Both the position numbers and the translations under genes were made by a program. Shown one piece after another: positions 13,116 to 45,079 of a stretch of 64,000 bases of DNA. The stretch comes from Lytechinus pictus (lineage: Eukaryota): the NCBI RefSeq assembly GCF_037042905.1, contig NC_087251.1, positions 39,310,001 to 39,374,000 on the forward strand, written 5' to 3'. Position 1 is the first letter of the stretch. Each line of letters begins with the position of its first letter. Below the pieces are notes generated by a model. It saw nothing but the letters and a program-made list of their open reading frames with translations, ran no database searches and was not told where the DNA came from.

Positions 13116-14459
13116 TCACACACTTGTCTGCATATACGAAGCCTTTGATCTCCCAATAGGTGCAGCTTGGTTGGTGGAGGCACTACCGATGGGTCTTGGC
13201 TTTTCTTTCATTGGTCCATCTTTGTTAGCTAATTTACCTGGCCTTACACCAGCATTTATCTGTCCATTGATTCTGGGTTTGACGATTGCTGTTGATGTAC
13301 CTGTTGTCTGAGGAGGTGCCGACATAGGTGGCGGAGGAGGTGAAGTCTTCGGATGCCTTGGCGGCGGTTTCTCAACAGGGGTTCTGACCGGACTTGGCAG
13401 AGGACTTGGAGGATCTTCATGTTGCCCGTCGGCTGACTTGGAGTCGGTGTCACTGTTGTAGTGTGATGGTGGTGGACTGGAATGGCCACCGCCGTTGACT
13501 TTGTGCTGTGGGCTGCCGTCACCCTCGGACCCCAACCGTCTGGATGGTGTGCTTCGTCTTGACACGTTCATTGCAGCATCCGCCTCAGGTTCAAGAGAAG
13601 CGATGTCACTGGAAGCAGCTGAATCAGAGGTATGGGTGGTTGCACTGGAGGTTGCCAGGACATCGTCGAAGATGCCCGAATCAGCGGGAGTTGCAGCATC
13701 CTGAGGGGAAGTGGCATTACTCAATGGGCTATCAACAGGAGGATGGCTGACATCCTCAGGGACACCTATAACCAGGTCAGACAAATCAACAAGGGTCTGC
13801 TCCTGGGATGTCTTCTCCGCTTCAGGTGCATCATCTGTCTGTCCATCAAGCAAGTCAAGCAGGAGACTAGTGTTTGATGGACCTTTGGGATAGGGTACCC
13901 GTGGAGGTGGAGTGTCCGTTAGATCAAGTAGATTAACAGGAGGTGGAGCCGTATCTTCATCGATGCTTACATCCACCAATAGATGCTTTTCGGGCTCTGG
14001 CTTTTCTTCCACCCCTTCCTCCTCCTTCTCCTTCGGCTTGTCGACAGCAGCTGAAACCACGGAGGATTCCTCCTCATCCTTCATGGTCATGCCACATTTC
14101 ACACACAACAGGGAGTATTTCTTATTCATTGTCGGCTTGGTGATCGTCTGAGTCCCCTTGTCGTGCAGCAGGACACCACCATCCTTCCCAGTTTTCCGCT
14201 TCCTCGTGGTCGGCACAAGCTTCTCCATTTCCTTCTTCTCTTCTTCTTCCCTCCGTTGCATGGCGCGGGCCACGACATGAGCAGGGACGGAGTTATAGGT
14301 CCTGGCAGCAATCAAGCCATTAGAGACACTAGTACCTGAGCTTGACAGAAGAGGATGGCTACTATTGGATTCGGTAGGAGATGTTGGCGATGGTTGGAAC
14401 ACACCCTTGTTGATCTCACCCATGATTTGGTGGACATAGTATTGCAGGTCTTGTGGAAG
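13116..14459 (-). CDS. BEGAIN: BEGAIN/TJAP1-family protein, terminal coding exon (447 aa, mostly disordered Pro/Ser/acidic)
   Basis: Minus-strand CAG acceptor at 14462-14460, phase 0, LPQDLQYYVHQIMGE...YNSVPAHVVARAM...SYMQTSV*. LPQDLQ and SVPAHVVARAM resemble BEGAIN LPSDFQ / SVPTCVIAKVL as I recall them. Probably the single co-ortholog of BEGAIN and TJAP1. Confidence 0.85.
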   Translation of the reverse strand, partial: LPQDLQYYVHQIMGEINKGVFQPSPTSPTESNSSHPLLSSSGTSVSNGLIAARTYNSVPAHVVARAMQRREEEEKKEMEKLVPTTRKRKTGKDGGVLLHDKGTQTITKPTMNKKYSLLCVKCGMTMKDEEESSVVSAAVDKPKEKEEEGVEEKPEPEKHLLVDVSIDEDTAPPPVNLLDLTDTPPPRVPYPKGPSNTSLLLDLLDGQTDDAPEAEKTSQEQTLVDLSDLVIGVPEDVSHPPVDSPLSNATSPQDAATPADSGIFDDVLATSSATTHTSDSAASSDIASLEPEADAAMNVSRRSTPSRRLGSEGDGSPQHKVNGGGHSSPPPSHYNSDTDSKSADGQHEDPPSPLPSPVRTPVEKPPPRHPKTSPPPPPMSAPPQTTGTSTAIVKPRINGQINAGVRPGKLANKDGPMKEKPRPIGSASTNQAAPIGRSKASYMQTSV

Positions 14460-15342
14460 CTGTTAAGATATAAAAAGAAAATAAATCATTAATCACTGCA
14501 TCATATAATTCCTTAGAACTACATCCTTACTGCTGCTGAGTATTGCCATAAAATTAGAAGTATAAATTTCCAATGTATATTTTATCAACTCATAAATATA
14601 TAAGACTTGATTCTTCCAAAGTTTGAGGTTATCTCTGCATTCTAAACAAATTTCAAGGAACAATGTAAATTTAATGAGAAAGAAATTAAAATGACTTATA
14701 TATAATAGCCAATTTTTTCATATTGTCAACTTTAATTTTTTTAAATGATTATAAATCATGATAAATCACAAAATTTAATGAATTATTTTTACTTATTAGA
14801 TAAAATACATAGAAAAGGAAAAAAAAAACATTATTTTTTCAAATTTAAATTGCAACATATTTAAAACAGTACTCATTTTCCTCCCACTGTATTACTAACA
14901 AGAACAAAGCAAAAGTAATTGATGGTATAAAACTTCAAGGAATGACATCTTCCAGAAAACAACATCAATCTATTCTTGCTGAGGTCTACAAGAGATTATC
15001 TTTGCAACTAGGTAAAATGACAGCGACAGCCTCTGGCAGAGACTATAAAACCTTTGACTGACAAGGGTGCTCTATAGAGAAATCTGGGTAATTAGATTGG
15101 CAATCTCAAGAAGCTAATCTAATTGGGATTAATCCGATCTTACTCTGGCAACTCAATCTGTTAAAGATGTGTTGGAAACCATTCAATTTAGATCCAATAA
15201 ACCAACAGAACAGCAAGTGATTTTAAAGTATTCTATCTTTCTACTTCTCTCTTTATTGAAATTGTGGATTTGATGCCTATAATACTATGAAATCATTGAG
15301 GCCTACCATATACAAAAGCAAAAAAATATAATGAAATTAAAA

Positions 15343-17158
15343 AACAAGTGGAACGCCTGGCAGTCTTGCCTGCATTACGCAATTCGATATAGCAACAGTG
15401 CTGTCTTTTAAAAAACAGCTAATTTATAATTATTCACAGAAGAAAACACTAATATGATAATAAAATATTATGTCCATTGACCCAAACTTCATGTGAAAAG
15501 ACTGGGATGGAATAACACTTGTCATAAGAGTCTTGCACGTAAACTTTAATGTTGACCTCAAAATGAACTTTGACCATACCATGTGACCTCCAAACACAAT
15601 AACATGCAGGTGTCCTAAATACACCTACGAACCAAGTTTGGTATAAAAGTGACTTAGGCTGCAGAGTTATGTGTCATATCATTGACCTCAAAATGACCTT
15701 TGACCTTACCATGTGACCTCTGATTGTGCCATGATATGCAGGTCTCCTCAGTACATCTACAACCCAAGTTTGGGTGAAAAGTGACTTACTGTTGCAGAGT
15801 TATGTGTCATAAGAGAGTCTTGCACATAAACTTTAACATTGACCTGGAAATGACCTTTGACCTTTCATGTGACCTCCGACTGCAGCATTACATGCAGGTC
15901 CCCCAAGTACATCTACCGTCCCAGTTTGGTTGAAAAGTGACTTACGGTTGCGGAGTTAGGTGTCATAAGAGAGTCTTGCATGTAAACTTTAACGTTGACC
16001 TGAAAATGACCTTTGACCTTAACATGTGACCTCTGACTGCAGCATAACATGCAGGTCCCCTCAAGTACATCTACCGTCCAAGTTTGGTTGAAAAGTGACT
16101 TACGGTTGCGGAGTTATGTGTCATAAGAGAGTCTTGCACATAAACTTTAACATTGACCTGGAAATGACCTTTGACCTTTCATGTGACCTCCGACTGCAGC
16201 ATTACATGCAGGTCCCCCAAGTACATCTACCGTCCCAGTTTGGTTGAAAAGTGACTTACGGTTGCGGAGTTAGGTGTCATAAGAGAGTCTTGCATGTAAA
16301 CTTTAACGTTGACCTGAAAATGACCTTTGACCTTAACATGTGACCTCTGACTGCAGCATAACATGCAGGTCCCCTCAAGTACATCTACCGTCCAAGTTTG
16401 GTTGAAAAGTGACTTACGGTTGCGGAGTTAGGTGTCATAAGAGAGTCTTGCATGTAAACTTTAACGTTGACCTGAAAATGACCTTTGACCTTAACATGTG
16501 ACCTCTGACTGCAGCATAACATACAGGTCCCCTCAAGTACATCTACCGTCCAAGTTTGGTTGAAAAGTGACTTACGGTTGCGGAGTTAGGTGTCATAAGA
16601 GAGTCTTGCATGTAAACTTTAACGTTGACCTGATAATGACCTTTGACCTTAACATGTGACCTCTGACTGCAGCATAACATGCAGGTCCCCTCAAGTACAT
16701 CTACCGTCCACGTTTGGTTGAAAAGTGACTTACGGTTGCGGAGTTAGGTGTCATAAGAGAGTCTTGCATGTAAACTTTAACGTTGACCTGATAATGTCCT
16801 TTGACCTTAACATGTGACCTCTGACTGCAGCATAACATGCAGGTCCCCTCAAGTACATCTACCGTCCCAGTTTGGTTGAAAAGTGACTTACGGTTGCGGA
16901 GTTAGGTGTCATAAGAGTCTTGCATGTAAACTTTAACGTTGACCTGAAAATGACCTTTGACATTACCATGTGACCTCTGACATTACCATGTGACCTCTGA
17001 CAGAATCATAACATGCAGGTTCTCCAAGTTCATCTACCATCCACATTTGGTTGAAAAGTGACTTACGGTTGCGGAGTCATGCATCATACGCTTTTTGACG
17101 GACGGACAACATTTGGATCCCTTAGTCTCGCCTTCACCTCTGGAGGGCGAGACAAAAA
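15343..17158 (+). mobile_element. Non-autonomous Helentron/HINE-like element with internal ~157-bp satellite
   Basis: AACAAGTGG start with subterminal GTCTTGCCTGCA; GACGGACGGAC microrepeat; terminal hairpin GTCTCGCC...GGCGAGAC (17125-17153) plus A-run. Confidence 0.75.
15520..17080. repeat. Tandem array of ~157-bp units (~10 copies)
   Basis: CATGTGACCT recurs at 15580, 15710, 15866, 16023, 16180, 16337, 16495, 16653, 16811 and 16967. Confidence 0.95.
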
Positions 17159-18060: not shown

Positions 18061-18147
18061 TTGGCTAACTTTATGTTGCATATACGCTCCCGATGGCGTA
18101 CACTGTAATAGTTGAACAGCTAGATCACAGTCTTTCTTGTATCGATT
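18061..18147 (-). CDS. BEGAIN: BEGAIN/TJAP1-family internal exon
   Basis: CAG acceptor (18150-18148), GTAAGT donor (18060-18055), 87 nt, phase 0/0: NRYKKDCDLAVQLLQCTPSGAYMQHKVSQ, compare BEGAIN YRKDCNLAAQLLQC...HKVSE and TJAP1 RYRLDCNLAVQLLKC. Confidence 0.92.
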
Positions 18148-18717
18148 CTGTGAAGACAAAAACAAAATGAGTTAATTGCCATGAAAACTTTTGGTAACAA
18201 CAAATATCACTTTCATCAGTAGACTCCTGTATTGTGAACTTTTCTCACTTGTAAATGAGAAATTCATTTCATCAAATCTGTTTAAACATTGAATTTCATG
18301 AGATAAAGCTAAATTTGATATTTTAACTTAAAATTTCATTCTACCCAAGGAAAATATCACACCCTAAATCATTTAAACAAGTGTTGCCAGTCTCCCTCTC
18401 TTTCCATTGTTGTCTTTTTCTCTCTCTCTTAATCTCTCTTTCCCCAAGTGATCTTCCATCCTATCTTCTTTCTTCTTTTGCAATTTCAGAGGGCAATTTT
18501 CAATATTTTTTTTAATGGGTGGGGATGGGAATGTAGAAATATCTTTGTCCCATGTATTTGGGGTTCACTGCCTCAACAAAGTGCAAACTAGTTAACAAAT
18601 TTTTCGGCACCACTCCTATTTGTTTAAGATCAGTATGCTCGATCCGTAATGAAAATCATAAGATCAGTATGCTCGATCTGTAATGAAAATCATAAGATCA
18701 TAAGTCAGAAAAAATTG

Positions 18718-18789
18718 GAACCAGTGGGATTCGAACCTGCCATCTACTGCTTTCCGGGCAGCGACTCAACCACCAGGCTATTCTGGTTC
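18718..18789 (-). ncRNA. tRNA-like cassette in the inverted copy
   Basis: Reverse complement of 18958-19029. Confidence 0.6.
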
Positions 18790-18957
18790 ACGGCTAAAAA
18801 AACGACAAAAAAATTTGTTAACAAGTTATGATTTCCTCCTATAAAAAGCCTCTTAATTTACTATCTATTGTCCACGGCGGACGGCATTTGAATATCAATG
18901 AGTCAGAAAGAAGAGGATCGAGGGTATTTGAATTCCAGTTCATCGTGGCTTAGCCGT

Positions 18958-19029
18958 GAACCAGAATAGCCTGGTGGTTGAGTCGCTGCCCGGAAAGCAG
19001 TAGATGGCAGGTTCGAATCCCACTGGTTC
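18958..19029 (+). ncRNA. tRNA-like Pol III cassette (pseudo-tRNA, GGA in anticodon position); repeated in all 8 units
   Basis: A-box-like TAGCCTGGTGG (18967), B box GGTTCGAATCC (19010-19020), terminal stem GAACCAG/CTGGTTC, stem GCTGC/GCAGT around loop CCGGAAA, T6 at 19033-19038. The T-stem is mispaired and position 33 is C, so it is not a canonical tRNA. Confidence 0.65.
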
Positions 19030-22000
19030 CAATTTTTTCTGACTTATGATCTTATGATTTTCATTACAGATCGAGCATACTGATCTTATGATTTTCATTA
19101 CGGATCGAGCATACTGATCTTAAACAAATAGGAGTGGTGCCGAAAAATTTGTTAACAAGTTATGATTTCCTCCTATAAAAAAGCCTCTTAATTTACTATC
19201 TATTGTCCACGGCGGACGGCATTTGAATATCAATGAGTCAGAAAGAAGAGGATCGAGGGTATTTGAATTCCAGTTCATCGTGGCTTAGCCGTGAACCAGA
19301 ATAGCCTGGTGGTTGAGTCGCTGCCCGGAAAGCAGTAGATGGCAGGTTCGAATCCCACTGGTTCCAATTTTTTCTGACTTATGATCTTATGATTTTCATT
19401 ACAGATCGAGCATACTGATCTTATGATTTTCATTACGGATCGAGCATACTGATCTTAAACAAATAGGAGTGGTGCCGAAAAATTTGTTAACAAGTTATGA
19501 TTTCCTCCTATAAAAAGCCTCTTAATTTACTATCTATTGTCCACGGCGGACGGCATTTGAATATCAATGAGTCAGAAAGAAGAGGATCGAGGGTATTTGA
19601 ATTCCAGTTCATCGTGGCTTAGCCGTGAACCAGAATAGCCTGGTGGTTGAGTCGCTGCCCGGAAAGCAGTAGATGGCAGGTTCGAATCCCACTGGTTCCA
19701 ATTTTTTCTGACTTATGATCTTATGATTTTCATTACAGATCGAGCATACTGATCTTATGATTTTCATTACGGATCGAGCATACTGATCTTAAACAAATAG
19801 GAGTGGTGCCGAAAAATTTGTTAACAAGTTATGATTTCCTCCTATAAAAAGCCTCTTAATTTACTATCTATTGTCCACGGCGGACGGCATTTGAATATCA
19901 ATGAGTCAGAAAGAAGAGGATCGAGGGTATTTGAATTCCAGTTCATCGTGGCTTAGCCGTGAACCAGAATAGCCTGGTGGTTGAGTCGCTGCCCGGAAAG
20001 CAGTAGATGGCAGGTTCGAATCCCACTGGTTCCAATTTTTTCTGACTTATGATCTTATGATTTTCATTACAGATCGAGCATACTGATCTTATGATTTTCA
20101 TTACGGATCGAGCATACTGATCTTAAACAAATAGGAGTGGTGCCGAAAAATTTGTTAACAAGTTATGATTTCCTCCTATAAAAAGCCTCTTAATTTACTA
20201 TCTATTGTCCACGGCGGACGGCATTTGAATATCAATGAGTCAGAAAGAAGAGGATCGAGGGTATTTGAATTCCAGTTCATCGTGGCTTAGCCGTGAACCA
20301 GAATAGCCTGGTGGTTGAGTCGCTGCCCGGAAAGCAGTAGATGGCAGGTTCGAATCCCACTGGTTCCAATTTTTTCTGACTTATGATCTTATGATTTTCA
20401 TTACAGATCGAGCATACTGATCTTATGATTTTCATTACGGATCGAGCATACTGATCTTAAACAAATAGGAGTGGTGCCGAAAAATTTGTTAACAAGTTAT
20501 GATTTCCTCCTATAAAAAGCCTCTTAATTTACTATCTATTGTCCACGGCGGACGGCATTTGAATATCAATGAGTCAGAAAGAAGAGGATCGAGGGTATTT
20601 GAATTCCAGTTCATCGTGGCTTAGCCGTGAACCAGAATAGCCTGGTGGTTGAGTCGCTGCCCGGAAAGCAGTAGATGGCAGGTTCGAATCCCACTGGTTC
20701 CAATTTTTTCTGACTTATGATCTTATGATTTTCATTACAGATCGAGCATACTGATCTTATGATTTTCATTACGGATCGAGCATACTGATCTTAAACAAAT
20801 AGGAGTGGTGCCGAAAAATTTGTTAACAAGTTATGATTTCCTCCTATAAAAAGCCTCTTAATTTACTATCTATTGTCCACGGCGGACGGCATTTGAATAT
20901 CAATGAGTCAGAAAGAAGAGGATCGAGGGTATTTGAATTCCAGTTCATCGTGGCTTAGCCGTGAACCAGAATAGCCTGGTGGTTGAGTCGCTGCCCGGAA
21001 AGCAGTAGATGGCAGGTTCGAATCCCACTGGTTCCAATTTTTTCTGACTTATGATCTTATGATTTTCATTACAGATCGAGCATACTGATCTTATGATTTT
21101 CATTACGGATCGAGCATACTGATCTTAAACAAATAGGAGTGGTGCCGAAAAATTTGTTAACAAGTTATGATTTCCTCCTATAAAAAGCCTCTTAATTTAC
21201 TATCTATTGTCCACGGCGGACGGCATTTGAATATCAATGAGTCAGAAAGAAGAGGATCGAGGGTATTTGAATTCCAGTTCATCGTGGCTTAGCCGTGAAC
21301 CAGAATAGCCTGGTGGTTGAGTCGCTGCCCGGAAAGCAGTAGATGGCAGGTTCGAATCCCACTGGTTCCAATTTTTTCTGACTTATGATCTTATGATTTT
21401 CATTACAGATCGAGCATACTGATCTTATGATTTTCATTACGGATCGAGCATACTGATCTTAAACAAATAGGAGTGGTGCCGAAAAATTTGTTAACAAGTT
21501 ATGATTTCCTCCTATAAAAAAGCCTCTTAATTTACAAAGTGCAAACTGTTTTATCTCTTCTGAATTTATCAAAGTTGTCTGCATTCAAGTGTTATCTGTT
21601 ATCAGTTGCCAAAGGCAAAAAAAAGAGTTACTTTCAGGTGAAATACAGCAAAGAGTACATATCACTTACTTCCCACAAATGATTGGCATGTATTTTAAGA
21701 ATCGTATCCATTCAAAACAGACGCATCTTTATATTTTCATGCTTTTCTGGTTTTCATTGAAAGCCTCACTTTGAAAGGGAATCAACCGCAAATGCATTCT
21801 TGACAATAACTTACATACCGATGAGGTAAACCACCATCGCAACAGAATTATTTCATTTAAGTAATTCTCACGCTTTTCATTAAAGAATATGTTCATATCT
21901 AAAGCTGACAGTGGCAGCTCAGAGTTAATGGTTCCTTAGCTGTGTGTGCAGGCAATACAATTAAGGCAGCAGCAGCATAAGCTAAATTGCCTAAACATGT

Positions 22001-22547
22001 CAAAAACATTTAATGGACTAAATATCTCCATATCTCCAATGAATTCCAGCGATTAACTTATTGGCATGTTGAATGAAGTCCGGAAAATTCCCCACTTATA
22101 TTTTGGTGAAAGATTATTTTCACATCTACATTAGGTAGCAATGGTGTGAGCATAAAGGACAAAAGGACTGAGCGGAATGTATCTATGAGGTAATATCATT
22201 AAAAAGCAGTCACGCATATTAAATTTCCTACCAATTCAAAAGCATCTTATGGACTGGACTACAATAAAATAAAATCCCTCCATAACTCCAATGTATTCTT
22301 TTAAAGATCTTCTTGGTATGTCAAATAAAGTTTGGAAAACACCCCCACTTATCAAATATTACTTTCACATTTAGTTTTGATAGCAATAGTTTAAGTACAT
22401 TGTCAAGAGTCAAAGCTGCATCTTTCATCTGGGAATCACGCAAGCAGCCCTGCATTACCAATTCTCACACTTCATCTTATCAATGAAGAATGCAGGAAAG
22501 CCGCAATGAAAAGATGCATCATGCCTTTATAAACAGGATTCTACTAA

Positions 22548-22939
22548 GGCCCCCATTCCACAGAACGGAGACCGTTGAAAGACCACTGAAAGACTTAAAA
22601 TTGATGAGGTCTTACAGCGGTCTTCAAGATCACTGAAATTTGTCATCTCTGTTGAATGGCTCAGAAAGACCACTTAGAGAACTGTGAAAGACTGCTGAAA
22701 GACCGCTGAAAGACCACTGAAAGACCATTTTCTTGTAAGACCGTTGTAAGACTGTTTTGAACCGTTTCAAAAAGTTTTGGAGCCCATGAAGACCACGAAG
22801 ACCGCTGCAAGATTGGTCAGGACTCGTGTAAGACCTCAAAGACCGTTGTAGGTTCATTGAGAGACCTCTGTAAGATCGACCAAAATTCGTGGTCTTTGAA
22901 AGGTCTTTCAGCGGTCTTGCTCTCTGTGGAATGGCCCCT
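22548..22939. mobile_element. PIF/Harbinger-like MITE with internal AAAGACC repeats
   Basis: CCATTCCACAGA / TCTGTGGAATGG inverted ends; TAA on both flanks. Confidence 0.7.
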
Positions 22940-23432
22940 TAAAAGACGTAGCAGAGACTTTTGACAAGGTACATTTAAAGGACATCGCTTAACATGTTGT
23001 ACACCATACTGTACCTTTAAAGTATGCATTAACGCAAAATTTTTTTTTTTAAACTTCTATTTCGTCTAAATGAATGCATGAATTATCTCTTCCCAGTATC
23101 ATCAATTATTGTAATGACAAATCGTTTGCCCTTTTCCTATTAATGAAAGGACATTTTATAATGAAAGCAGTGGATAAGAGCAATGTGGACGTTGTTCATT
23201 AACCTGAATGTACCACATAAAATTCAGGCATGTCTCACAAGGACTTAAGATCAATTCTGATCAATCGCAACTTTGTCATTGACTTCATTTGTAAAACTTA
23301 TAAAATAGAAGTTGAGAAAAATCTGGAGTTGTACTTATGTCAGACTGAATGCAACTCTTTGTAAGAGGAGGCCAAATTCCATCAAATCACTCTTAATGGC
23401 AAAAGATTCAGTGAGATTTTCTTATGATTATA

Positions 23433-24253
23433 CAGTGCGTCCCACAAAAAACGAAACCGAGATTTATCGATGATTTATCATAATTTAATCACAAATGCAA
23501 TAGACAAATGACCTACCATTGTAAAGCTTAGAATCTCCTCTTTCATCTGAAATTACTTAGATTATTTCTCATTCACGCATGAGTGAGCAAAAACAATTTG
23601 AAGAGGGGATACCAAAAAGTCATTTGGCGGGCTGTATCTGGGTTTCAAAAAGAAAACCACATTTTTAGGAAGTTCAATATCTGCTCTTTAATTTGATACC
23701 TCAATTACAGAAAATGGTCAAGAAATAAGAAAGTTCTGGTTATTTGAAATAAGGCTTGAATTTCAATAATTTCATAAAATGAAGAGGTTTTACAGGCTAG
23801 CGTTCAAAACTCACTCGACACTCCGTTTTGTTGACGATCAGCCATGCATGAAGTCTTTTGTTAACCATGCGATAGCTTCTGTGGGAAACCGGTGAAAACA
23901 CGTTTATTTAATGAGATTATGGAAATACAAGCATTGTTTCGAGGGAACGTAACTTTTTTACTTCTTGACCATTTTTTGTGATTAAAGTATCAAATTAAAG
24001 AGCAGATATTGAACTTTTTAGGCATGTGATTTTCTTTTTAAAATTCAGATACCCCCCGCCAAATGAGTTTTTGGTATCCTTTCTTCAAATTGTTTTTGCT
24101 CACTCATGCGTGAATGAGGAATAATCTAAGTAATATCAGATGAAAGAGGAGATTCTAAGCTTTACATTGGTAGGTCATTTGTCTATTGTATTTGTGATTA
24201 AGTTATGATAAATCATCGCTAAATCTCGGTTTCGTTTTTTCTGGGACGCACTG
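23433..24253. mobile_element. Tc1/mariner-type MITE with ~290-bp inverted arms, TA TSD
   Basis: TA|CAGTGCGTCCCACAAAAAACGAAACCGAGATTTA ... TAAATCTCGGTTTCGTTTTTTCTGGGACGCACTG|TA; arms stay complementary for ~290 bp. Confidence 0.9.
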
Positions 24254-24796
24254 TATATAAATACAACTCAGAATGGAGAGAAACCAAACTAATTCTGACA
24301 TAGTCTTTAAGGAGTATAACATATTAAGACCTACATTAAGCTTGTCAAACAGTTTATTTAATATTGCAGTTCATTTCATTTCAATATATCTGAAGTCTGA
24401 CACACTTTACTAACTGCATTTTTGTTACTGTCTTTATTGATGCATACCATGAATTTGCAATTGCACGCTTCGCAAACTGTGTAATGTACGTGTATACATT
24501 ATAACATCAATATGTAATCAAAGACCACTGCCATGAGCAGAAAAATAATGTCACATCTGACTTTGAAATCTTTTAATTCCCAACGAGAGACAGCCTCAAA
24601 CCATATCTCTGATTTCAATCCCAAGGTTTGTCTTTAATAACTTACTGTAAGCTACTCTCGGATGGATACATTCTCAGCGATATAATGTGGTGTCTGCTGA
24701 TGAAAATAACCTAACCATTGGCAGTCACAGCAACATTATCAGCTAGTAATATAGCAGCTCAATCACTACAGTAATCAAGTATGGCAAGCCATATCA

Positions 24797-24977
24797 GGGG
24801 GGTGTTTCATACAGCTGTTTTTAAGTTAAGAGCGACTTTAAGAACGACTGGTGAACCTTTCTTACTCGCTAAACCATCGTCCATGAACACTTTGGTGTAT
24901 ACTATTTACCACAAGAAAGGATCACCAGTCATTCTTAAAGTCGCTGTTAACTTACGTACAGCTTTATGAAACACCCA
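24797..24977. mobile_element. Palindromic MITE, same family as 9097-9288
   Basis: Shared TAAGTTAAGAGCGACTTTAAGAACGACTGGTGA arms. Confidence 0.75.
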
Positions 24978-25584
24978 TCCAACCTTAAATGCTAATATAT
25001 ATGGCAAGGCCACTTTTCCATTGTACATTTCTATATTACTGCTCAAATAAAAAAATAAAAGGGCACAAGATCTCCAAGGGGGATGAGGGGGGAGGAGCAC
25101 TGAGGCCAATCAAAAGTGGACCTCTACATTTCCAGCGAAACATTATTAATTCATCATATGTTTTTTTCAATTGTAATGAGTATTTATCAATTTTGGTTTC
25201 AAATTTATAACAGAATATTCATATTGCATGTATTTGTACTTCAATTGTTAAATTTCAAGACATCTGTATAGATTTTGTACTTTTGTTGGAAATGAGGAGA
25301 AATAGAAACTGAGATGAAACAGGTATCTGTGGCCATGACTTTCAGTGGCCTTGGATTATACAAGTCCTACAATATACAGAACTATGTACTGTTTTGTCAT
25401 CCACACATTCCCTATAATTACACAGACTATGTACTTATGGTCAATTCAAGATTACAGACCAGTCATTCGAGAACTCTTAACACTACAAGTCAGATGTTTT
25501 AATGTTTTACTCGATCAAATTACACATACATGTACCATGGTAGCATGTATCATTTACTTGATTCTTTTCTACAGCAAATTATTT

Positions 25585-25980
25585 ACCGTGTTTACACGTG
25601 CATCGGCTCGCGGTTCAGAACCAAAAGCCGATGCAGAATCGGCTTTTGGTTCATCTTGCACCGCATTTACACGCCGTCACAGCTCGCGGTGCAGAATCGG
25701 CTCGTGTGGCAAAAACCTGAAATGATACACGCACCAACAATATACGTCATAATAAAGACAACGCTGGATCCGTGCGCTTTGAAGTACGTCATAATGGTAA
25801 AGTAAATGAATGCGCGCCAATTGCCGATGCAGAATCGGCTTTCTGTCTACACGTAGTAAAAAAGCCGATTCTGCATCGGCTCGCGGTTCTGAACCTACTA
25901 CTTTGGTGGTGCAAAATTGCCGATGCAAGTTAATCGCGTTTACACGCAACAATAAAGCCAATGTAGCGTGTAAACACGGT
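25585..25980. mobile_element. MITE with TIR ACCGTGTTTACACG and internal GCCGATGCAGAATCGGC palindromes
   Basis: ACCGTGTTTACACG / CGTGTAAACACGGT ends in TTA/TAA context. Confidence 0.75.
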
Positions 25981-27570
25981 AATTGATTATGACATTCACT
26001 TCAGTACCCTTTCATCAATTGTTGAAATAGAAGATAAAATATATTACATTAAAAGTACCAAGTATAATATATCTCCTGGTAATTTACTGTAAATTCATAA
26101 ATCTAGCCATTGGGGACCTCTGCGTATATAAGGGAAAGCTGAGCTTACTTAATTAAATCATACCATGCAACCATCATTATTGATTGTAATGTTCACTTCA
26201 ATACTCTTGCATCAATTGTAAAATCAGAAGATAAATATATTGGATCATAATACCCTACTTTTTGAGATAAAATAATTAGGAAGCTGCCAAGGTCAAATTA
26301 TCCTCTATACATGTATGTGTTAGTCAAAGCAATTGCTAATGGACAAATGCGGATCATTCAAATGTTTGCAGCTACCATACAGGTGTTCACAAGATGGAAC
26401 GACTATGATTTATCCTCCTGCATTTGATTTCTTTTTCGACCGATTACCCATGGCTGCTTCCGCACCGCTGACTCATCAAATCGTATCTGGGTCCGTGCCA
26501 CCCGACGCGTCAGGATCGGCTCGAAAGAAAACACCTCTGTCCGCCCACGCCCCTCTCTGAGGGGATGCGTCGCTAAATCAGGGCGACTGGGTATGGCAGA
26601 AGCCAGAAAGGCCAGGGTGTCCTGAGGAGATGGGGACTCATCCCTCACTTGCTCCTTTTTAAAACACAACATGAATTTTTGGATCATTTGATGTCAACGG
26701 TAGGGTAAAAGACCAGGTACAAGGAGTCATATGGTAGAATTGTGCTTGGGGTCAAAAGATACATAAAGCATCGATTTGGTGTTTTGAAAATCAAACTTTG
26801 GAAATAAATATGAAGAGGCTTGAATATTACCTACATTAAGATATGAACAAAACCAAACTAAATACAAAACATGATATGAATAGTTGATACTTAAAATACT
26901 TAAATACTTAAAACTTAAAAATAATACATCATTATAGTTCATCTCCATAGACATCCACCCGTGCTCAAAAGTTAGTGAACCCCACCACAAAATGCACTCC
27001 TTCATGCTGAGTGTTGAATATAGACAACAACAGTACAATGTTTGGTGAGACCAGAGAAACAAACTTTATTGCATGTAATGTTTTATCCCCTGACTTCACA
27101 ATTAAATATCTAACACATGGCAGAACTTGAACATTCTAAATTGCACATGCAAGAGTTCACTGCCCCTTTAACAACAAAATATTGGTGCTCTTTTTAGAAG
27201 TTAAAAATCCTCATTTTCATTCTCAACTCTATTATGATCAGGCTGTTATCTGCAAAATGATGAACTGGGCAGTCGATTGTATCAAATTATCTTTCACAGT
27301 ATCAAAACAACTCTACAGAAACATGGCACATAGTAAGTGCATCTATACAGACATCATTTTTGCCTCTTAATTGTACTATACAAATATAGACACAACGTAG
27401 CATAAGTAAATACCGATATTAGAGAGTCCGCTGTCTGTCTCGTGGGAAATAGACACTCAACACTCATCACGTAATTGCTACAGATTCAATTACTTCATTT
27501 ATATTCATGGATTTTGTGAACGTTAAAAATGTCTGATATTGAATGAATTTTTTCTGCAAACTTGCTATCA

Positions 27571-27716
27571 TAATAATAATAATACTATAGGATTTGTATA
27601 GCGCACGTATCCACCTTGCTAGGTGCTCAAGGCGCTCCTACATTACCCAGGCTAAGCTAGCTACCGATTCCAGTGCGCACAGCTTTTTGAGGAATTACTT
27701 CCTGCCGGTACCCATA
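27571..27716 (-). mobile_element. 5'-truncated SINE copy
   Basis: Reverse complement of the 3' half of 35757-36033, with (TTA)n tail. Confidence 0.85.
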
Positions 27717-27847
27717 TTTGAAAGCATGTCTGTCAAATCCTTTTCTGTATATTATTCATATTTTCATAGATATGACACTAATTTTTCTCATAAATGTTAT
27801 CTCTCTTTTATCTCTTTCTCATAATTACCACTATCATTACCAGAAAA

Positions 27848-27871
27848 TAGTAGTAGTAGTAGCAGTAGTAC

Positions 27872-27904
<33 letters not shown>

Positions 27905-27920
27905 GAGTAGAAGCAGATGT

Positions 27921-27963
<43 letters not shown>

Positions 27964-27997
27964 AAGTAGTAGTAGTAGTAGGAGTAGAAGCAGATGT

Positions 27998-28087
<90 letters not shown>

Positions 28088-28088
28088 A

Positions 28089-28151
<63 letters not shown>

Positions 28152-28182
28152 CAGCAGTAGTAGTAGTAGAGTAGAAGTAGTG

Positions 28183-28249
<67 letters not shown>

Positions 28250-28272
28250 CAATAGCAGTAGCATTAGTAGTA

Positions 28273-28324
<52 letters not shown>

Positions 28325-28390
28325 CAGCAGCAGCAGTAGTAGTAGAAGAAGTAGAAGTAGTAATTAGTAGAAGTTGAAGTAGTAGTAGCA
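27848..28390. repeat. Long compound (TAG)n microsatellite
   Basis: Directly visible; the interruption GGAGTAGAAGCAGATGTG is itself duplicated (~27904 and 27981). Confidence 0.97.
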
Positions 28391-28638
28391 TAAATAAATA
28401 TGATATAGTAGAAGTACAAGTGTATTTCCATTATCATCAATATCACTTTTAACATTATTATTTTGTTTCTTCTATAATTATCATCATCATTATCATTATT
28501 ACGATTATTAATATCATTATCATCATAATCAATTATATCTCCTTCTTTCACAACCATTCTCCATGTCCTTTCTTTTCTGCAATCTGCATTTTTTTTTTTT
28601 TGGGGGGGGGGGTCATAAGCATGTCTCCTCTCAACTAC

Positions 28639-28870
28639 TAGGGACAGTGATTTTCCTTTTTACCGGTAAATAAAACGGAAATTCCGCTTGGTTCTTATAC
28701 TTTTCATGTAAATATTTATGAAATTCACCTTTGCAAAACGGAATTCAGGTTTTACTATGTACATTTTCAGTGACAAAACAGAATTTCCATTTTTAGATCA
28801 AGTTGAAACAGAATTAGGTTTTCAGAAACGGAAAAGGCCATTTTTTTTCAACGGAAAATCACTGTCTCTA
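28639..28870. mobile_element. MITE with TIR TAGGGACAGTGATTTTCC, 6-bp flanking duplication
   Basis: Right end GGAAAATCACTGTCTCTA; AACTAC at 28633-28638 and 28871-28876. Confidence 0.75.
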
Positions 28871-29581
28871 AACTACCTTATCTATTCTACACCACCTAGA
28901 CTTTGCCAAGGGCTAGGATTAAAACACCCAAATCTCCCTTACTCACACATTTCCCCTCTCTTGAAGGAAATCCTTACAGGAATCGCTTCATTTTGTTGAC
29001 ATCATAACTAGATTTGATAAACATCATGTACATCCCACCAAAATGGATGTCAAAACTGACATTTTGGTTGCCACTGGAGATCTCCTAACGATGTAAACAT
29101 CTCCGGTTTCATCATCATTCCCCATTACTTCTCACAAATTGAAGAAGCCGTTGTTTATTAACACTATCTCGCATTTTTTTATTCTTGGAACTCTTTGTGT
29201 TTTACTCCTTTTCAAATGTTTAAAGACACAAACTTTTCTAAGGTTCTTGTTTTATAAACTTATTGTTTGTTATCATCAGTTTTTCAATCCCTTTCATTTT
29301 GTATGCCTTTATCAAGATTTGTTTGGTCCAAAAAAAATATCTAGAATTCAAGTATACTATACATGTACACACTTAAAGCCATTTTAAATGTAAATGAAAA
29401 AGAAGTTCTCTATTTTGATTCAATTCAGTATTTATTTCCAAATTCAATTGCAAGGACCTAATGAGAACAAAATTATAAACGGAAAAAGTTATAATGCTAT
29501 TCTACCTAATTGGTAGAGAAAGAGAGAGTTGTAAATAAGGGACAAAAAATCTTACAAGAGAAAAAAATAGGTACAAGATCA

Positions 29582-31398
29582 AACAAGTGGAACACCTCTG
29601 GCAGTCTCGCCTGCATTACGCAATTCGATATAGCAGCAGTGCTGCTTTAGAAAACAGCTAATGAATACTTATTCACAGAAGAAAACACTAATATGATAAT
29701 AAAATGTTATATCCTTTGACCCAAAATGACATTTGACCATGACTATGTGACCTAAGACATGCGCAAAACAGTCATTCATACTTGACTACCCTAATGTTGA
29801 TGTTTCATGAGCTAGATCCATAAACTTTTTAAGTTATGATGTCAATTCAACACATACTCCCAACATGGCCAAAGTTCATTGACCTTTCAATGACCTTTGA
29901 TCTTGGCCATGTTCCTAAAACGCGCACAGGGTATTCAGGGATACATTGCTGCTCTTATTAGGGACAGTGATTTTCCGTTAAAAAAATTGCCTTTTCCGTT
30001 TCAGAAAATCGTAAATTCTGTTTCAGCACATCAGAAAACGGAAATTCCGTTTCCCCATAGACTTTGCGTACATGGAAAATTGACGATTCCGTTTACCCAT
30101 TCAGTAGCAATGTAACATCACTCGCGCTGGTCAAAATTTGTATCTGCCTCTGTACCAACAACGCAGTAGAATCCGCTCTAATCGGATCTATGCGGGTACA
30201 CAAAATATTTTGACAAACACATTTAACATGAATACATCCTCACCTTTCACATTATTAGCATTATTTTACGGTTGAATGAAATTTTATCGTTAATTTTGGG
30301 GGGTTTTGGACATCGTTTGAGCAGTCAATGACTTCAGCCTATCCGCCATTTTGGATTTCAAGACCGGAATACTGTGCCGTTACATCTTCAAACGTAGAGG
30401 GCAGCAACACATGACCGTGTTGTTAAATCAAACGATGTGTGCATGTGAATGTTTTCGATACGGCCGACCCCGCCGCCGGCCAAGGGCCGCGGCGCGGGCG
30501 AGGGGTACAATCGAGTGTGATGGAGTCAAGAGCAGTCACGATGTGTGGATTGTCATGATTGTAGTGAAGTGAGATCGTGTTTTGTGGCCATTTAATATTC
30601 GTATTTTGTTGAGATTTTGGAGTAATTTCTGTTGCAGTTCTGTGTATTCTGAGGAAAAATATATTTTCCGTGATTTTCCGTTTGTAATGCCACTTTCCTT
30701 TTCAAAAGGCCTTTCCGTGAATTCCGTCCATTTTCCGCGATCGCGGAAAACACTGTCCCTATTTATGTCCAAGTTTCATGAACTAGATCCATAAACTTTT
30801 AAAGTTATGATGACAATTCCTCAAATACCCCCAACATGGCCAAAGTTCATTGACCCCAAGTGACCTTTGACCTTAGTCATGTGACCTGAAACTCACACAT
30901 GATATTCAGGGATCCATGAATGCTCTTATGTCCAAGTTTCATGAACTACACCAATAAAATTTTAAAGTTATGACAATTTCTCAAATAACCCCACCATGGC
31001 CAAAGTTTGTTGACCCTAAGTTACCTTTGACCTTTATCATGTGACCTGAAACTCTGGCAGGGTCTTCAGTGATACACTATTACCCTTATGTCTAAGTTTA
31101 ATGAACTAGGTCCATATACTTTCGAAGTTATGACAACATTTCAAAAACTTAACCTTGGTTAAGATTTCGATATTGATTCCCCTTAGATAGGTCTAAGTTC
31201 ATTGACCCTAAATGACCTTGGTCATGTGACCTGAAACTCAGGCAGGATGTTCAGTAATACTTGATTACCCCTATGTCCTTACCCTTATGAACTAGGTCCA
31301 TATACTTTCTACGTTGAGATAACATTTCGAAAACTTAACCTTGGCCTTCGGAAAAGCGGCGCCTATAGTCTCACTCTGCTGTGCAGGCGAGACAAAAA
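29582..31398 (+). mobile_element. Second Helentron/HINE-like element with diverged TGACCT-rich internal repeats
   Basis: AACAAGTGGAACACCTCTGGCAGTCTCGCCTGCA start; end ...GTCTCAC...TGCAGGCGAGACAAAAA (subterminal IR plus hairpin). Confidence 0.75.
29959..30761. mobile_element. TAGGGACAGTG-family DNA element nested in the Helentron-like element
   Basis: TAGGGACAGTGATTTTCCG / CGGAAAACACTGTCCCTA; it interrupts the host motif GCTCTTATGTCCAAG, seen intact at ~30922. Confidence 0.8.
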
Positions 31399-33906
31399 TC
31401 AAGTAGACACTTTGTCCAATGGTAATTATAATTTATCACTTTAGGGGCATACAGAAATATCTAACTACTAGACAACTGCTTTTGACAATTTTTTACATAA
31501 TATTACACTTTTCTGAGCATTACATTCGGTCCAGCTGAAGAGCATACTATGAGTCATCCTTCGTCACCTGATGCATCATCTCTGACCAGACCCAATGATG
31601 CATCATGGTAAGGAAAAAAACACACACATCACTTTCATTGGTGTCTGTTGAAAACCCAATCTACAGGTTGCTGCTTTGATGTATTGATGCTAATGATCTT
31701 ATAAATAGCAGAGCTCTGTGATACCATTTTGAGAGCAGGAGAATATGGGATTATCTAATGATAATAAATGCAGTTGATACATGAAACAAAAATTTCTAAC
31801 ATAGATCTTTGCAAAAACCTATTGAAATTAGAGTGACATTGATTACGTTATCTGCAATAGCTTTTAACATCATTTCAACATTTTATCTCTTTTGAATTCA
31901 CTTTAATACAAAGGAAATATTTTATTGTACATTGGTATCTCAATATTGTTTCTTCAACAAACTACCAGGTTTTACTGATATGCCAATCAGATTTTCAACA
32001 AATATTGCTCAATGAAGATGAAATGCTTTGCACAAAGGAATAAGTGCGATAGCAGGGATTAAATCCAAATATTCTATTTAAGTACTTTTCAATGTTAGTT
32101 ACATCTTATAGATTAATCTTGCTTTGTATCAAACTTGATTATTTCTTCTAAAATATCTTTCTATTACTCAGTTTGATCAATAATTGGATGACAACCATAT
32201 CTCTGATTTTTTTTCTCACTAAAATGTGGGAAAAAACACATCTATCAGAGAATAATTTTGCGATACAAATTTGAATATCATTTTTGGTCATTATAGAAAA
32301 GCTCTCAACTAAGCAATGTACAGTCTTATGTAAAAATATGCTATACAAAAAGACTTTATGCATAGCAGTCTTTCAAAAATGTAGAGCAAATGCGATGCGA
32401 TACCACAAACAAACTAGTGAAATGACCAGATTAGTAGTCATCTGGGTAGAATTGACAAGTTTCATCAAAATCCCTGATTACCTTCTAATCAGAAATGACT
32501 GCATTCTGGTCAAATCTGACTAGCCATCTGACCTTTCCATTCAGTATTTTGTAAGAAACTTAACTTGTCGCGAGTTTAAAGTGATTGAACTAGGTTAATT
32601 TCAATGAATGTTAGCAATATGTACAGTAAGTACATGGAGCAGCTTTAAAAAGAAAAAGTCACCTGCAAAAAAAAAAAAAAACAGAAAGCACCTGTGATGA
32701 AAAACACTTTCTGATCTCACTATGAATTTATTCTGATACAATAAGTGATAAACGCAGCACCCAGCACTTGGGGGCATCACTTCAAAAGACTTATGAAGTA
32801 TTGTGCACTGAGTCAATTTACAATTATAATGAAAAGCTAAGATAAAGGGAAAAAAAGAGGTTTGCGAAAATGTCAAGGCCTTGGAAGGCCAAGAAAGTCA
32901 TCCAAAATGTACAAATTACATTTCGACCCATTCATGGATGCATGCGTAGTCTAAATCCATTTACATCCAAGTCAGCAGGTTGTATACCTTCAAAGTCAGA
33001 AAAAACATCCCTCAGTATTTTCCTTTTCTTTCTCTCTCTCTCTCTCGATTCAATTTCTTTTTGTCACTAAAGCTAAATCATGTCTAAAGAGCACAGATTT
33101 TGCAGATTAAAAAATACAAGAGCAAAAACTTCTTTTTTTCAAAATAGCTTCGTTCAGAAATAAGAAATGAGAACAAAAGAAGACAACATCATGTAAGACA
33201 TTTCAGGTTTACCTGTATTTAAAACAAATCATACATTCCAAATCTTTGCAATTCTCCTTTTTTGGCAGCCTCTCTTTATTGAATCCTCATCTGTTTTCAA
33301 TTTTTCTACCTTCTCTTCATCAGTAATTCTTCATTTGATATGTTTTCTTACAAATTCTCATTCTCTCTTTCAAAATCGGAACTCTGACAATCTACCATGT
33401 ATTATGTTCTTAATCCCAAGAAAGAAAATATAATAAACACAATACCTATAGCAATTATGCACTATTATGTACATAATATTTTTCTGGTGACTCAACATTT
33501 GCTCCTGCGACAATTGCTCCAGGCTTAATTTCGTCTAAGATGTAGTTTTAGGGCTAGGGTTTGCAATAGGGTTTTATGTTAGGTTTAGGGTAGTGTATAT
33601 TGTTAAACCGAGTGTTGAACGTGATCATTGGATTGGTGTGTGTAATTTAGAGCGGAGCAATTGTCATGGTACCATTTTTCTACCCTCTATGTATATAACT
33701 TTGAATTCAAAGGGAAACAATTGTTTTTCTATGCAGCATGTCCTCATCTTCAGAAGATATCTACAAGGGGGTTTTCCCTATACCTACAACGAAACTAAAT
33801 ATATTTTCTAATAAAATTACTGGTAAACGTGGCTGGGTATTTCGATTCACAAACACCAGCAGGATATAATGGGCAAACAAAATATCAAGATTCAATTAAG
33901 ACTTAC

Positions 33907-42994: not shown

Positions 42995-45079
42995 AATTCT
43001 TGTTTATGAATAGTGATTGAATGAACATTATCCTTTTCAAACTTGGCTCTCTAAGGAATGTTTAAATCAAGATTCCTTTTTTTTAATCTTAAGATTTAAA
43101 TTGCAGCATATTATATTTTGAAATTGATTATACAGGTTATGACTTGATGATGTTAAGCCCCTTTAAAAATCATTTCAGAACAGAGATTTTAAGCCTTAAG
43201 GTCATATTTCACTTCAATTCTTGTTAATGAATAGTGATTGAATGAACATTATCCTTTTCAAACTTGGCTCTCTAAGGAATGTTTAAATCAAGATTCTTTT
43301 TTTTTAATCTTAAGATTTAAATTGCAGCATATTATATTTTGAAATTGATTATACAGGTTATGACTTGATGATGTTAAGCCCCTTTAAAAATCATTTCAGA
43401 ACAGAGATTTTAAGCCTTAAGGTCATATTTCACTTCAATTCTTGTTAATGAATAGTGATTGAATGAACATTATCCTTTTCAAACTTGGCTCTCTAAGGAA
43501 TGTTTAAATCAAGATTCTTTTTTTTTTTAATCTAAGATTTAAATTGCAGCATATTGTATTTGAAATTGATTATACAGGTTATGACTTGATGATGTTAAGC
43601 CCCTTGAAAATTCATTTCAGAACAGAGATTTTAAGCCTTAAGGTCATATTTCACTTCAATTCTTGTTAATGAATAGTGATTGAATGAACATTATCCTTTT
43701 CAAACTTGGCTCTCTAAGGAATGTTTAAATCAAGATTCTTTTTTTTTAATCTTAAGATTTAAATTGCAGCATATTATATTTTGAAATTGATTATACAGGT
43801 TATGACTTGATGATGTTAAGCCCCTTTAAAAATCATTTCAGAACAGAGATTTTAAGCCTTAAGGTCATATTTCACTTCAATTCTTGTTAATGAATAGTGA
43901 TTGAATGAACATTATCCTTTTCAAAGTGGTAACTTGGCTCTCTAAGGAATGTTTGAATTAAGATTTTTTTTTTTAATCTAAGATTTACATTGCAGCATAT
44001 TATATTTTGAAATTGATTATACAGGTTATGACTTGATGATGTTAAGCCCCTTGAAAAATCATTTCAGAACAGAGATTTTAAGCCTTAAGGTCATATTTCA
44101 CTTCAATTCTTGTTAATGAATAGTGATTGAATGAACATTATCCTTTTCAAAGTGGTAACTTGGCTCTCTAAGGAATGTTTGAATTAAGATTTTTTTTTTA
44201 ATCTAAGATTTAAATTGCAGCATATTGTATTTGAAATTGATTATACAGGTTATGACTTGATGATGTTAAGCCCCTTGAAAATTCATTTCAGAACAAAGAT
44301 TTTAAGCCTTAAGGTCATATTTCACTTCAATTCTTGTTAATGAATAGTGATTGAATGAACATTATCCTTTTCAAAGTGGTAACTTAGCTCTCTAAGGAAT
44401 GTTTGAATTAAGATTTTTTTTTTAATCTAAGATTTAAATTGCAGCATATTATATTTAAAATTGATTATACAGGTTATGACTTGATGATGTTAAGCCCCTT
44501 AAAAAATCATTTCAGAACAAAGATTTAAGTCTTATGGCAGAGCTGCCAAGTTGTATTTTGCATTTTCAGTATTCTTATCCCCCAAAATCAGTATTTTGAC
44601 AAAAAAAATCTGTATTTTTACCGTGTGAGATAAATATGCAGACCTGCCAACTTCTGGGAATGAAAAACTGTATTCTGTGATAAAAAAACTGTATTTTTCC
44701 CCAAAAAAGTGTATTACATAATAAAATGCTTGGCGCACTCGCTCATCGCGGCGCTCAAGCTGCATGCAAGCTAAAATGCGCACTGCTCTTGCAGATGAAA
44801 AAAAAAACATTAAAACACGTGTATATCTTCACCCTGGTTTTAACAAAATGATTGAAAAAAAAATAAGTTACCTGAAATTACATTGATCTAATAACCATAT
44901 TTGTGTATGTTTTATGAAATAGAGACATATAGAGATTATTTTTCTCAATAAATTACGATTTAGTAAAAAAAAAAATTTCAAAGAAAAAACGTACTGCCGT
45001 ATTTTGGTTGCAAAAACGTACTAAATACGGCTAAAACGTACTGGTTGGCAGGTCTGTTGAGGTCATATTTCACTTCAAC
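42995..45079. repeat. AT-rich 221-226-bp satellite, 7 units, last unit split by a MITE
   Basis: GAATAGTGATTG at 43008, 43229, 43450, 43671, 43892, 44118, 44342; the unit resumes (GGTCATATTTCACTTCAA) at ~45061. Confidence 0.95.
44538..45056. mobile_element. CAGACCTGCCAAC-family MITE (two left ends) inserted in the satellite
   Basis: Left ends CAGAGCTGCCAA (44538) and CAGACCTGCCAAC (44639), right end GTTGGCAGGTCTG; flanks TTATGG / TTGAGG are degenerate copies of satellite TTAAGG. Confidence 0.7.

Follow-up and report, generated by a model that had tools for sequence, protein, structure and literature searches.

A dispersed 334-bp tandem repeat of Lytechinus pictus combines a tRNA-like cassette, Penelope-type ends and a hammerhead-like scaffold

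We have found that the tRNA-like cassette repeated in the window (the whole stretch of 64,000 nucleotides of Lytechinus pictus DNA analyzed here) is a module of a young, dispersed, non-coding tandem repeat. By analogy with elements that leave the same kind of ends, this repeat is very probably mobilized by Penelope-type machinery. The nine copies counted by the first-pass annotation are all present, eight of them identical on the plus strand with a period of 334 and one inverted at 18718-18789. They form part of one insertion, at 18590-21533, flanked by two copies of a 14-bp target sequence and made of a 207-bp inverted arm followed by 8.2 forward units, with zero substitutions among the 8 full units of the forward array. 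Spliced reads bear out the earlier claim of an intronic location: the host intron measures 15.8 kb and belongs to a minus-strand gene, so that the forward units are antisense to the host. The insertion is organized as follows.

18148..33906, minus strand: host-gene intron containing the insertion, from spliced reads
18576..18589, no strand: left copy of the 14-bp target-site duplication
18591..18797, minus strand: inverted, 5'-truncated arm, with site A at its outer end and one cassette copy inside (18718-18789)
18798..18808, no strand: short A-rich junction linking the arms
18809..21535, plus strand: forward array of 8.2 units of 334 bp, with site B at its outer end
19160..19198, plus strand: Penelope-type 'tail' running from fixed end A to fixed end B (second unit)
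21534..21547, no strand: right copy of the target-site duplication, its first 2 bases common to the element end

The host gene is expressed, with minus-strand exons at 13116-14462 and 18061-18147, one of them a 448-codon low-complexity frame. Two other tandem arrays lie in the window, 8.3 copies of a 158-bp unit at 15682-16981 (a 160-bp unit with a similar motif is found at 30763-31136) and, at 42995-44534, an array in which an A+T-rich unit of 221 bp is repeated 6.9 times with 96% likeness.

The unit of the repeat is 334 bases long. A whole-unit search of the 812-Mb genome gave 526 candidates, 40 of which were scored; about 515 matches were found genome-wide with the 3' half of the cassette (control 0) and 409 with the tail. 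We have analyzed 119 loci. Whole-unit score supplied 40 of them, a 24-mer of the cassette 38, the tail 20 and the GGC loop 21. Duplicates or repeats of other loci (L107, L108, L182, L187, L188, L191, L192, L194, L195, L197, L200) and four stray chains were removed before counting. L106, L107 and L108 (G000:C3) are one insertion with identical flanks at three places, i.e., a segmental duplication or an assembly repeat. The loci fall into subfamilies: a young one of ~333 bp that carries a 34-bp duplication, an older one of ~289 bp and one with a GGC loop. The repeat is also present in the contigs of a run labeled as a second organism.

The evidence for mobilization comes from the ends. Over the 119 loci, 154 of the 179 arms stop, with no poly(A) tail, at one of two points about 37 nt apart, 75 of them at site A and 79 at site B. 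Since the outer ends are fixed and the inner ends variable, we infer that plus is the RNA strand. Arms on both strands are found in 56 of the 119 loci, and these pair A with B in 41 cases, A with A in 2 and B with B in 0, with 13 having an unclassed end; the two copying starts are thus used one per strand in 41 of the 43 classed loci. Direct repeats flanking 40 loci were of 10–16 bp in 24, of 8–9 bp in 6 and absent in 10. The repeat thus shows two fixed 3' ends bounding a tail of 30–40 bp, together with tandem units and an inverted 5'-truncated arm. The parts available of the relevant reports describe the same set: the protein of Anolis Poseidon, in purified form, makes cuts in both strands and initiates at two internal sites bounding the tail (PMC11167929), and Penelope-like elements show the inverted arm, the 30–40-bp tail and multicopy non-autonomous forms (PMC8557442). 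Young Penelope-type ORFs are abundant in the same genome, and intact ones of 830–912 aa are found (among the best 70 of 740 candidates scored). The description of the repeat as a multimer-forming mobile element is supported.

The search for a helper element covered 35 loci with Penelope-type sequence and 16 ORF starts and gave no significant match; the top scores were discounted, one because the slice overran into a copy of the repeat itself and the other because the locus had been chosen by the shared motif. A derivation of the tail from a decayed Penelope ORF start was also considered and dropped, the similarity being not significant. Several Penelope-type sequences were seen along the way. 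A young element with a canonical hammerhead and an inverted arm (L049 139-2640 / L133) has its end within a few dozen bases of one copy of the 334-bp repeat, with no sequence in common. The family L143-L159 (e.g., L147), likewise young, has a frame of 830 codons and U3-A8 in its hammerhead core. Its two 3' ends are separated by about 33 bases, and the second is like site B by eye, not significantly. Seven Penelope-type ORF copies, tandem and inverted, lie within 18 kb at G000:C10:11885074-11903195.

The cassette occupies 72 nt in the first unit (18958-19029), its ends paired as GAACCAG/CTGGTTC. This closing stem of 7 bp, the A-box-like motif, the B box, the 5-bp stem with its 7-nt loop and the T6 all lie where the first-pass annotation had placed them. 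We read the cassette with the standard tRNA numbering and A- and B-box consensus. The box motifs given in the part available of PMC10886601 agree with this consensus. The features of the cassette and of the sequence that it pairs with are these.

18894..18955, plus strand: degenerate antisense copy of the cassette, predicted by folding as the 5' arm of a long RNA rod (first unit)
18958..19029, plus strand: putative tRNA-derived cassette (first unit), likely an internal Pol III promoter
18967..18977, plus strand: A-box-like motif, from sequence, unaltered in 89 of the 98 loci covering it
18985..19001, plus strand: anticodon-like stem-loop with a GGA or GGC loop, the sole tRNA arm predicted to persist in the unit RNA
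19010..19020, plus strand: B box GGTTCGAATCC, from sequence, unaltered in 94 of 111 loci
19033..19050, plus strand: T6 (19033-19038) directly downstream of the cassette plus 12 more bases, like a Pol III terminator and also the predicted 3' end of the rod

As the first-pass annotation had supposed, the cassette is not a decoding tRNA, to judge from models and folding, and it is not predicted to fold as one. A working tRNA-Ser(GGA) was rejected on several grounds. ARAGORN called no tRNA on it, and the covariance-model scoring that had been proposed as a check left it well short: the best Rfam match was tRNA-Sec with 18.6 bits (E 1.1) against a cut-off of 47, when genuine tRNA genes in the same genome score 51–75 bits on RF00005. 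The A box is preceded by two extra bases, only three of the four positions of the D stem pair, two of them as G.U, and so do three of five in the T stem. The anticodon-like stem GCTGC/GCAGT contains one G.U and closes the loop CCGGAAA, with a C at position 33; neither U33 nor the paired D and T arms of a tRNA gene are found. The 'anticodon' itself varies, GGA in 69 and GGC in 20 of 105 loci (the GGC-loop pattern has 66 matches genome-wide). Folded in isolation the 72-mer does no better than shuffles (z -0.66), with a pairing probability of 0.97 for the acceptor stem and 0.02 for the T stem, and in all four unit contexts folded the acceptor stem falls to 0.00. Conservation of the stems across the family, another of the proposed checks, holds in part: the acceptor stem is invariant, and on the other side G50A disrupts the T stem in 15 of 111 loci and no compensatory changes were found in any cassette stem across the family loci. 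The likeness to a tRNA is therefore confined to the sequence boxes, the acceptor stem and one hairpin.

No parent tRNA gene came out of a search with the same anticodon stem and other loops, all 12 matches being family copies. In the RF00005 search 63 of 73101 candidates were scored, and the 12 loci checked were all tRNA-Lys. A dense cluster of tRNA genes, those checked again all tRNA-Lys, lies at G000:C4:9700711-9735957. Another family, of 405 bp with a tRNA(TCA) (L070 2150-3040), shares the layout of antisense arm, tRNA and T run; in the copy checked the tRNA is a different one, which ARAGORN does call; a relaxed scan found no hammerhead in it, and a 14-base A+T-rich stretch matches the tail of the 334-bp repeat.

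In the unit RNA the cassette is predicted to pair with the antisense arm in a long rod, with z -5.4 on the plus strand and -2.1 on the minus strand, and the differences between the arms are 8 of G.U type vs. 1 of A.C type. The first choice suggested by the sequence, slightly better than even in our estimation, is that the cassette acts at the DNA level as an internal Pol III promoter and not as a tRNA or RNase P/Z site. Of 32 shared non-CpG alleles, 3 fall in the 72 nt of the cassette out of 289 bases (P 0.026), and the same 3 of 32 is the count for the 90 bases of cassette plus T6 arm (P 0.004), P values that are generous because part of the locus sample was picked by cassette motifs, with a bias toward conservation. 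The rare substitutions are evenly spread over the regions of the unit. Of 122 readings of the T run, 106 show an uninterrupted T5–T8. It is plausible that the cassette yields a short Pol III RNA. A TATA-like run is also present in each unit (18837-18848), inside the tail and about 30 bases upstream of the spacer; it varies between subfamilies, and 5' ends are not piled downstream of it (6 vs. 10.3 expected).

The conservation of the cassette could equally serve the rod. The strongest rival, which we hold to be rather unlikely, is that the cassette matters only as RNA structure, i.e., as a rod arm that stabilizes or circularizes a Pol II read-through template, with the A and B boxes and the T6 as passengers of an old tRNA or SINE capture. 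The strand specificity of the rod speaks for it, and so does pairing that continues 12 bases beyond the T6. All the long cDNAs (about 255 passes) run across the T6, so that the template must have been a read-through RNA whichever the polymerase, and it could be wholly Pol II. RNA-seq reads also resemble passive read-through: there were 860–1146 family reads per 12.9 million, 3–6% of them at 99% or better and most from diverged copies, half of them extending into the flanks, with no piles of starts or ends and no sign of a dominant element RNA, in 150-nt paired reads that are unable to reveal a 75-nt RNA. The library looked weakly stranded at the host exon and read direction was left unused. 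Against this rival, the antisense arm plus linker has changed more, with 6 subfamily changes in 62 nt vs. 3 in the 90 nt of cassette and T6 arm. Among the seven non-CpG subfamily changes at rod-paired positions, five preserve the pair, but the other two unpair bases opposite a B box that stays constant, which counts for the promoter. The T run, moreover, is unbroken though T-to-C changes opposite G would be expected to strengthen the rod.

The plus strand at site A can be drawn as a type I hammerhead, with a 4-bp stem I, the core-like CAGATCGA, a 4-bp stem II with one bulge, GAAA, a palindromic stem III of 6 bp whose 2-base loop varies, and a UH position. Two rows complete the description of the unit.

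19047..19122, plus strand: 34-bp duplication of the young subfamily, which doubles the hammerhead-like stem I strand, the core (19067-19074, 19101-19108) and the stem II strand
19137..19166, plus strand: hammerhead-like G box, palindromic stem III hairpin, UH position and stem I strand, with site A on the 3' strand of the hairpin

The suggestion that the cassette stands in place of a ribozyme has to be qualified, because this scaffold is found in every unit. A descriptor of it, tuned after the sequence had been inspected, matched 2 of 3000 shuffles, and relaxed versions 5 and 7. Rfam detected no hammerhead in the unit. A search for close relatives that keep the core intact gave none, its single match being a Penelope end. 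A Penelope end of the same genome has 13 identical bases across the G box, at a locus picked by that motif. Penelope hammerheads, in the part available of PMC4209133, show the same short stem I, palindromic stem III and bulged stem II. From the arrangement of the motifs, a hammerhead ancestry of the scaffold seems marginally the better bet, and the scaffold is likely a relic with a broken core. That it still cuts we consider unlikely.

The more specific proposal, which we find more doubtful still, is that of a working retrozyme of the Sm-alpha type, in which a variant hammerhead would cut multimers after the palindromic hairpin and the tRNA ligase RtcB would circularize the monomers. All three stems, the G box, the UH position and the palindromic stem III are present, loop II is able to pair with the sequence just past stem I, and 49 of the ends at site A fall at unit positions 16–19, a cluster 0–3 bases ahead of the would-be cut. 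Natural hammerheads with an insertion after A6 retain low activity, according to the accessible part of PMC3088659, and core variants are also treated in PMC10085705 as far as available. However, among 147 readings of the core, 120 show U4A together with an inserted base and 10 show C3A, a five-unit array being among the latter; the G box of the copies in the window is longer by one A; a conserved hairpin is predicted to compete for the core; and 5' ends are not piled at the would-be cut.

The first-pass annotation had proposed that RNase P/Z cuts the multimers into monomers at the tRNA mimic, to which an anticodon nuclease may be added as a variant. We regard this as very improbable. In its favor, the invariant acceptor stem does form in the isolated 72-mer, and 5' ends are slightly in excess just past the cassette, with 10 where 4.4 were expected (P 0.015), and at the anticodon-like loop (cassette +33 to +44, window 18990-19001: 16 vs. 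6.9 expected, P 0.002 for a window picked post hoc). Pausing in the structure is a simpler cause for both, preferred because rates of 5' ends are comparable along the opposite arm of the rod; a nick in the loop may also contribute. Against it stand the weak T stem even in isolation, the acceptor stem lost in the unit context and the subfamily change G50A, which breaks a T-stem pair yet keeps a rod pair. At cassette +1 there is one 5' end per 209 passes, and 1 in an 8-base window vs. 4.2 expected. The burial of the cassette in the rod and the missing pile at its start argue against cutting by RNase P and for the promoter at the DNA level. Scarcely credible, finally, is selection by the host in this intron, whether for a TFIIIC insulator or for the making of a functional 75-nt RNA, despite nine perfect B boxes inside 2.8 kb, since one recent insertion among hundreds, with identical units and a target duplication, explains the nine copies with no need of selection at the site, and the decay rate after insertion is equal inside and outside the cassette; the array may have an incidental effect on chromatin.

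Units within a locus are far more alike than units of different loci, with a divergence per site of 0.0042 vs. 0.0178. One locus (L056) shows an ABABA alternation at three sites and another (L058) is a mixture of two haplotypes. These array patterns fit either repeated passes of the enzyme round a monomeric or dimeric circle or a series of jumps on one RNA or between two, as far as can be read from the sequences; homogenization after insertion may be another source of the identity of the units.

We propose the following cycle. The A and B boxes would be bound by TFIIIC; the T6 would end most transcripts, leaving a by-product of 75–80 nt, and a minority would continue; read-through from the host could be a second source of template. 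In transcripts covering the unit, the cassette is predicted to be enclosed in the rod by pairing with the antisense arm upstream, out of reach of the enzymes that process tRNAs. A Penelope-type protein would then cut A+T-rich DNA with a stagger of about 12–14 bases, of which the footprint is seen at the insertions, and copying would begin at site B on one strand and at site A on the other; the forward array, inverted arm and duplicated target would follow from this. Copying of circular RNA or jumps between templates would produce multimers that are near-identical or have an ABABA or mosaic pattern. At site A, the hammerhead-like scaffold would be the relic of a retrozyme or Penelope ancestor, retained as part of the start signal. 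Only tentatively can this be carried further, to a retrozyme descendant in which the core is dead, the stem III hairpin is kept as the start of reverse transcription and a captured tRNA promoter is masked by the antisense arm; read-through from one cassette to the next T6 would yield a terminally redundant RNA round which the enzyme jumps, making multimers without ribozyme or ligase.

The tRNA-derived SINEs carry a tRNA-like head with A and B boxes at their 5' end and an A-rich or repeat tail at the 3' end. The 334-bp repeat shares the tRNA-like part and the boxes but has them in an internal cassette at whose first base 5' ends hardly ever fall, forms multimers, lacks an A-rich or repeat tail and has two fixed 3' ends; the earlier opinion that this is not an ordinary SINE head stands.

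Of the elements known, Schistosoma Sm-alpha and the animal retrozymes come nearest, as judged from the portions available of the publications cited. The SINE-like retroposons Sm-alpha and Sj-alpha of Schistosoma (PMC6765202, PMC2770079) have short non-coding tandem units, a tRNA-related and apparently Pol III promoter, a type I hammerhead arrangement and a dispersed high copy number, Sm-alpha uniting Pol III promoter, hammerhead and tandem repeats (PMC6765202, PMC2770079, PMC6155905). Its hammerhead, however, is canonical and active, whereas the 334-bp repeat has a broken core, and its cassette is followed by a conserved T6 and masked by an antisense arm; and Penelope-type ends, which our repeat has, are not among the features described for Sm-alpha in those portions. 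The animal non-LTR retrozymes (PMC7229834, bioRxiv 10.64898/2026.07.22.740005) resemble it in tandem units of 150–450 bp, low G+C, target duplications >4 bp, a strongly self-paired RNA and a proposed dependence on Penelope. Our dispersed repeat has the unit length and the long target duplications but lacks the intact type I hammerhead per unit that, with abundant circular RNA, defines them, and their descriptions, in the parts available, do not include a tRNA module.

Penelope/Poseidon and their non-autonomous derivatives, e.g., MRC1 (PMC11167929, PMC8557442, in part), share the two fixed copying starts bounding a 30–40-bp tail, the inverted 5'-truncated arm, the head-to-tail multimers and the A+T-rich targets, but the 334-bp repeat lacks an ORF and matched none of the autonomous families sampled at a significant level. 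TRIMp3 Helenus, Ajax and Cassandra offer, in the available text of PMC10886601, a non-functional small-RNA-gene module in a non-SINE retroelement, tandem arrays and conserved A and B boxes, the last two of which we also find here, and Cassandra retains the Pol III promoter and terminator, so that such elements are a precedent for using a module of this kind as promoter; they differ in being LTR-type, with a primer-binding site, a polypurine tract and duplications of 4–5 bp, in contrast to duplications of 10–16 bp, variable 5' ends and inversions. The openly accessible literature searched contained no description of a repeat that is mobilized by Penelope, has tRNA boxes and carries a dead hammerhead.

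Taken as a tRNA, or as an element of the host in this intron, the sequence offers nothing unusual. By analogy, the 334-bp repeat appears to work like retrozymes, Sm-alpha and TRIMp3, but it fails the test of an intact hammerhead. Hammerhead mutants of Penelope-like elements still insert in vitro, as reported in the part available of PMC11167929, so that the role of the ribozyme for these elements and the origin of their multimers are live questions. The repeat is a natural test of them, being mobile despite its broken core and starting once per strand in nearly all the classed loci, and its ABABA and mosaic arrays record the templates used in copying. Searches that demand an intact hammerhead overlook families such as this one.
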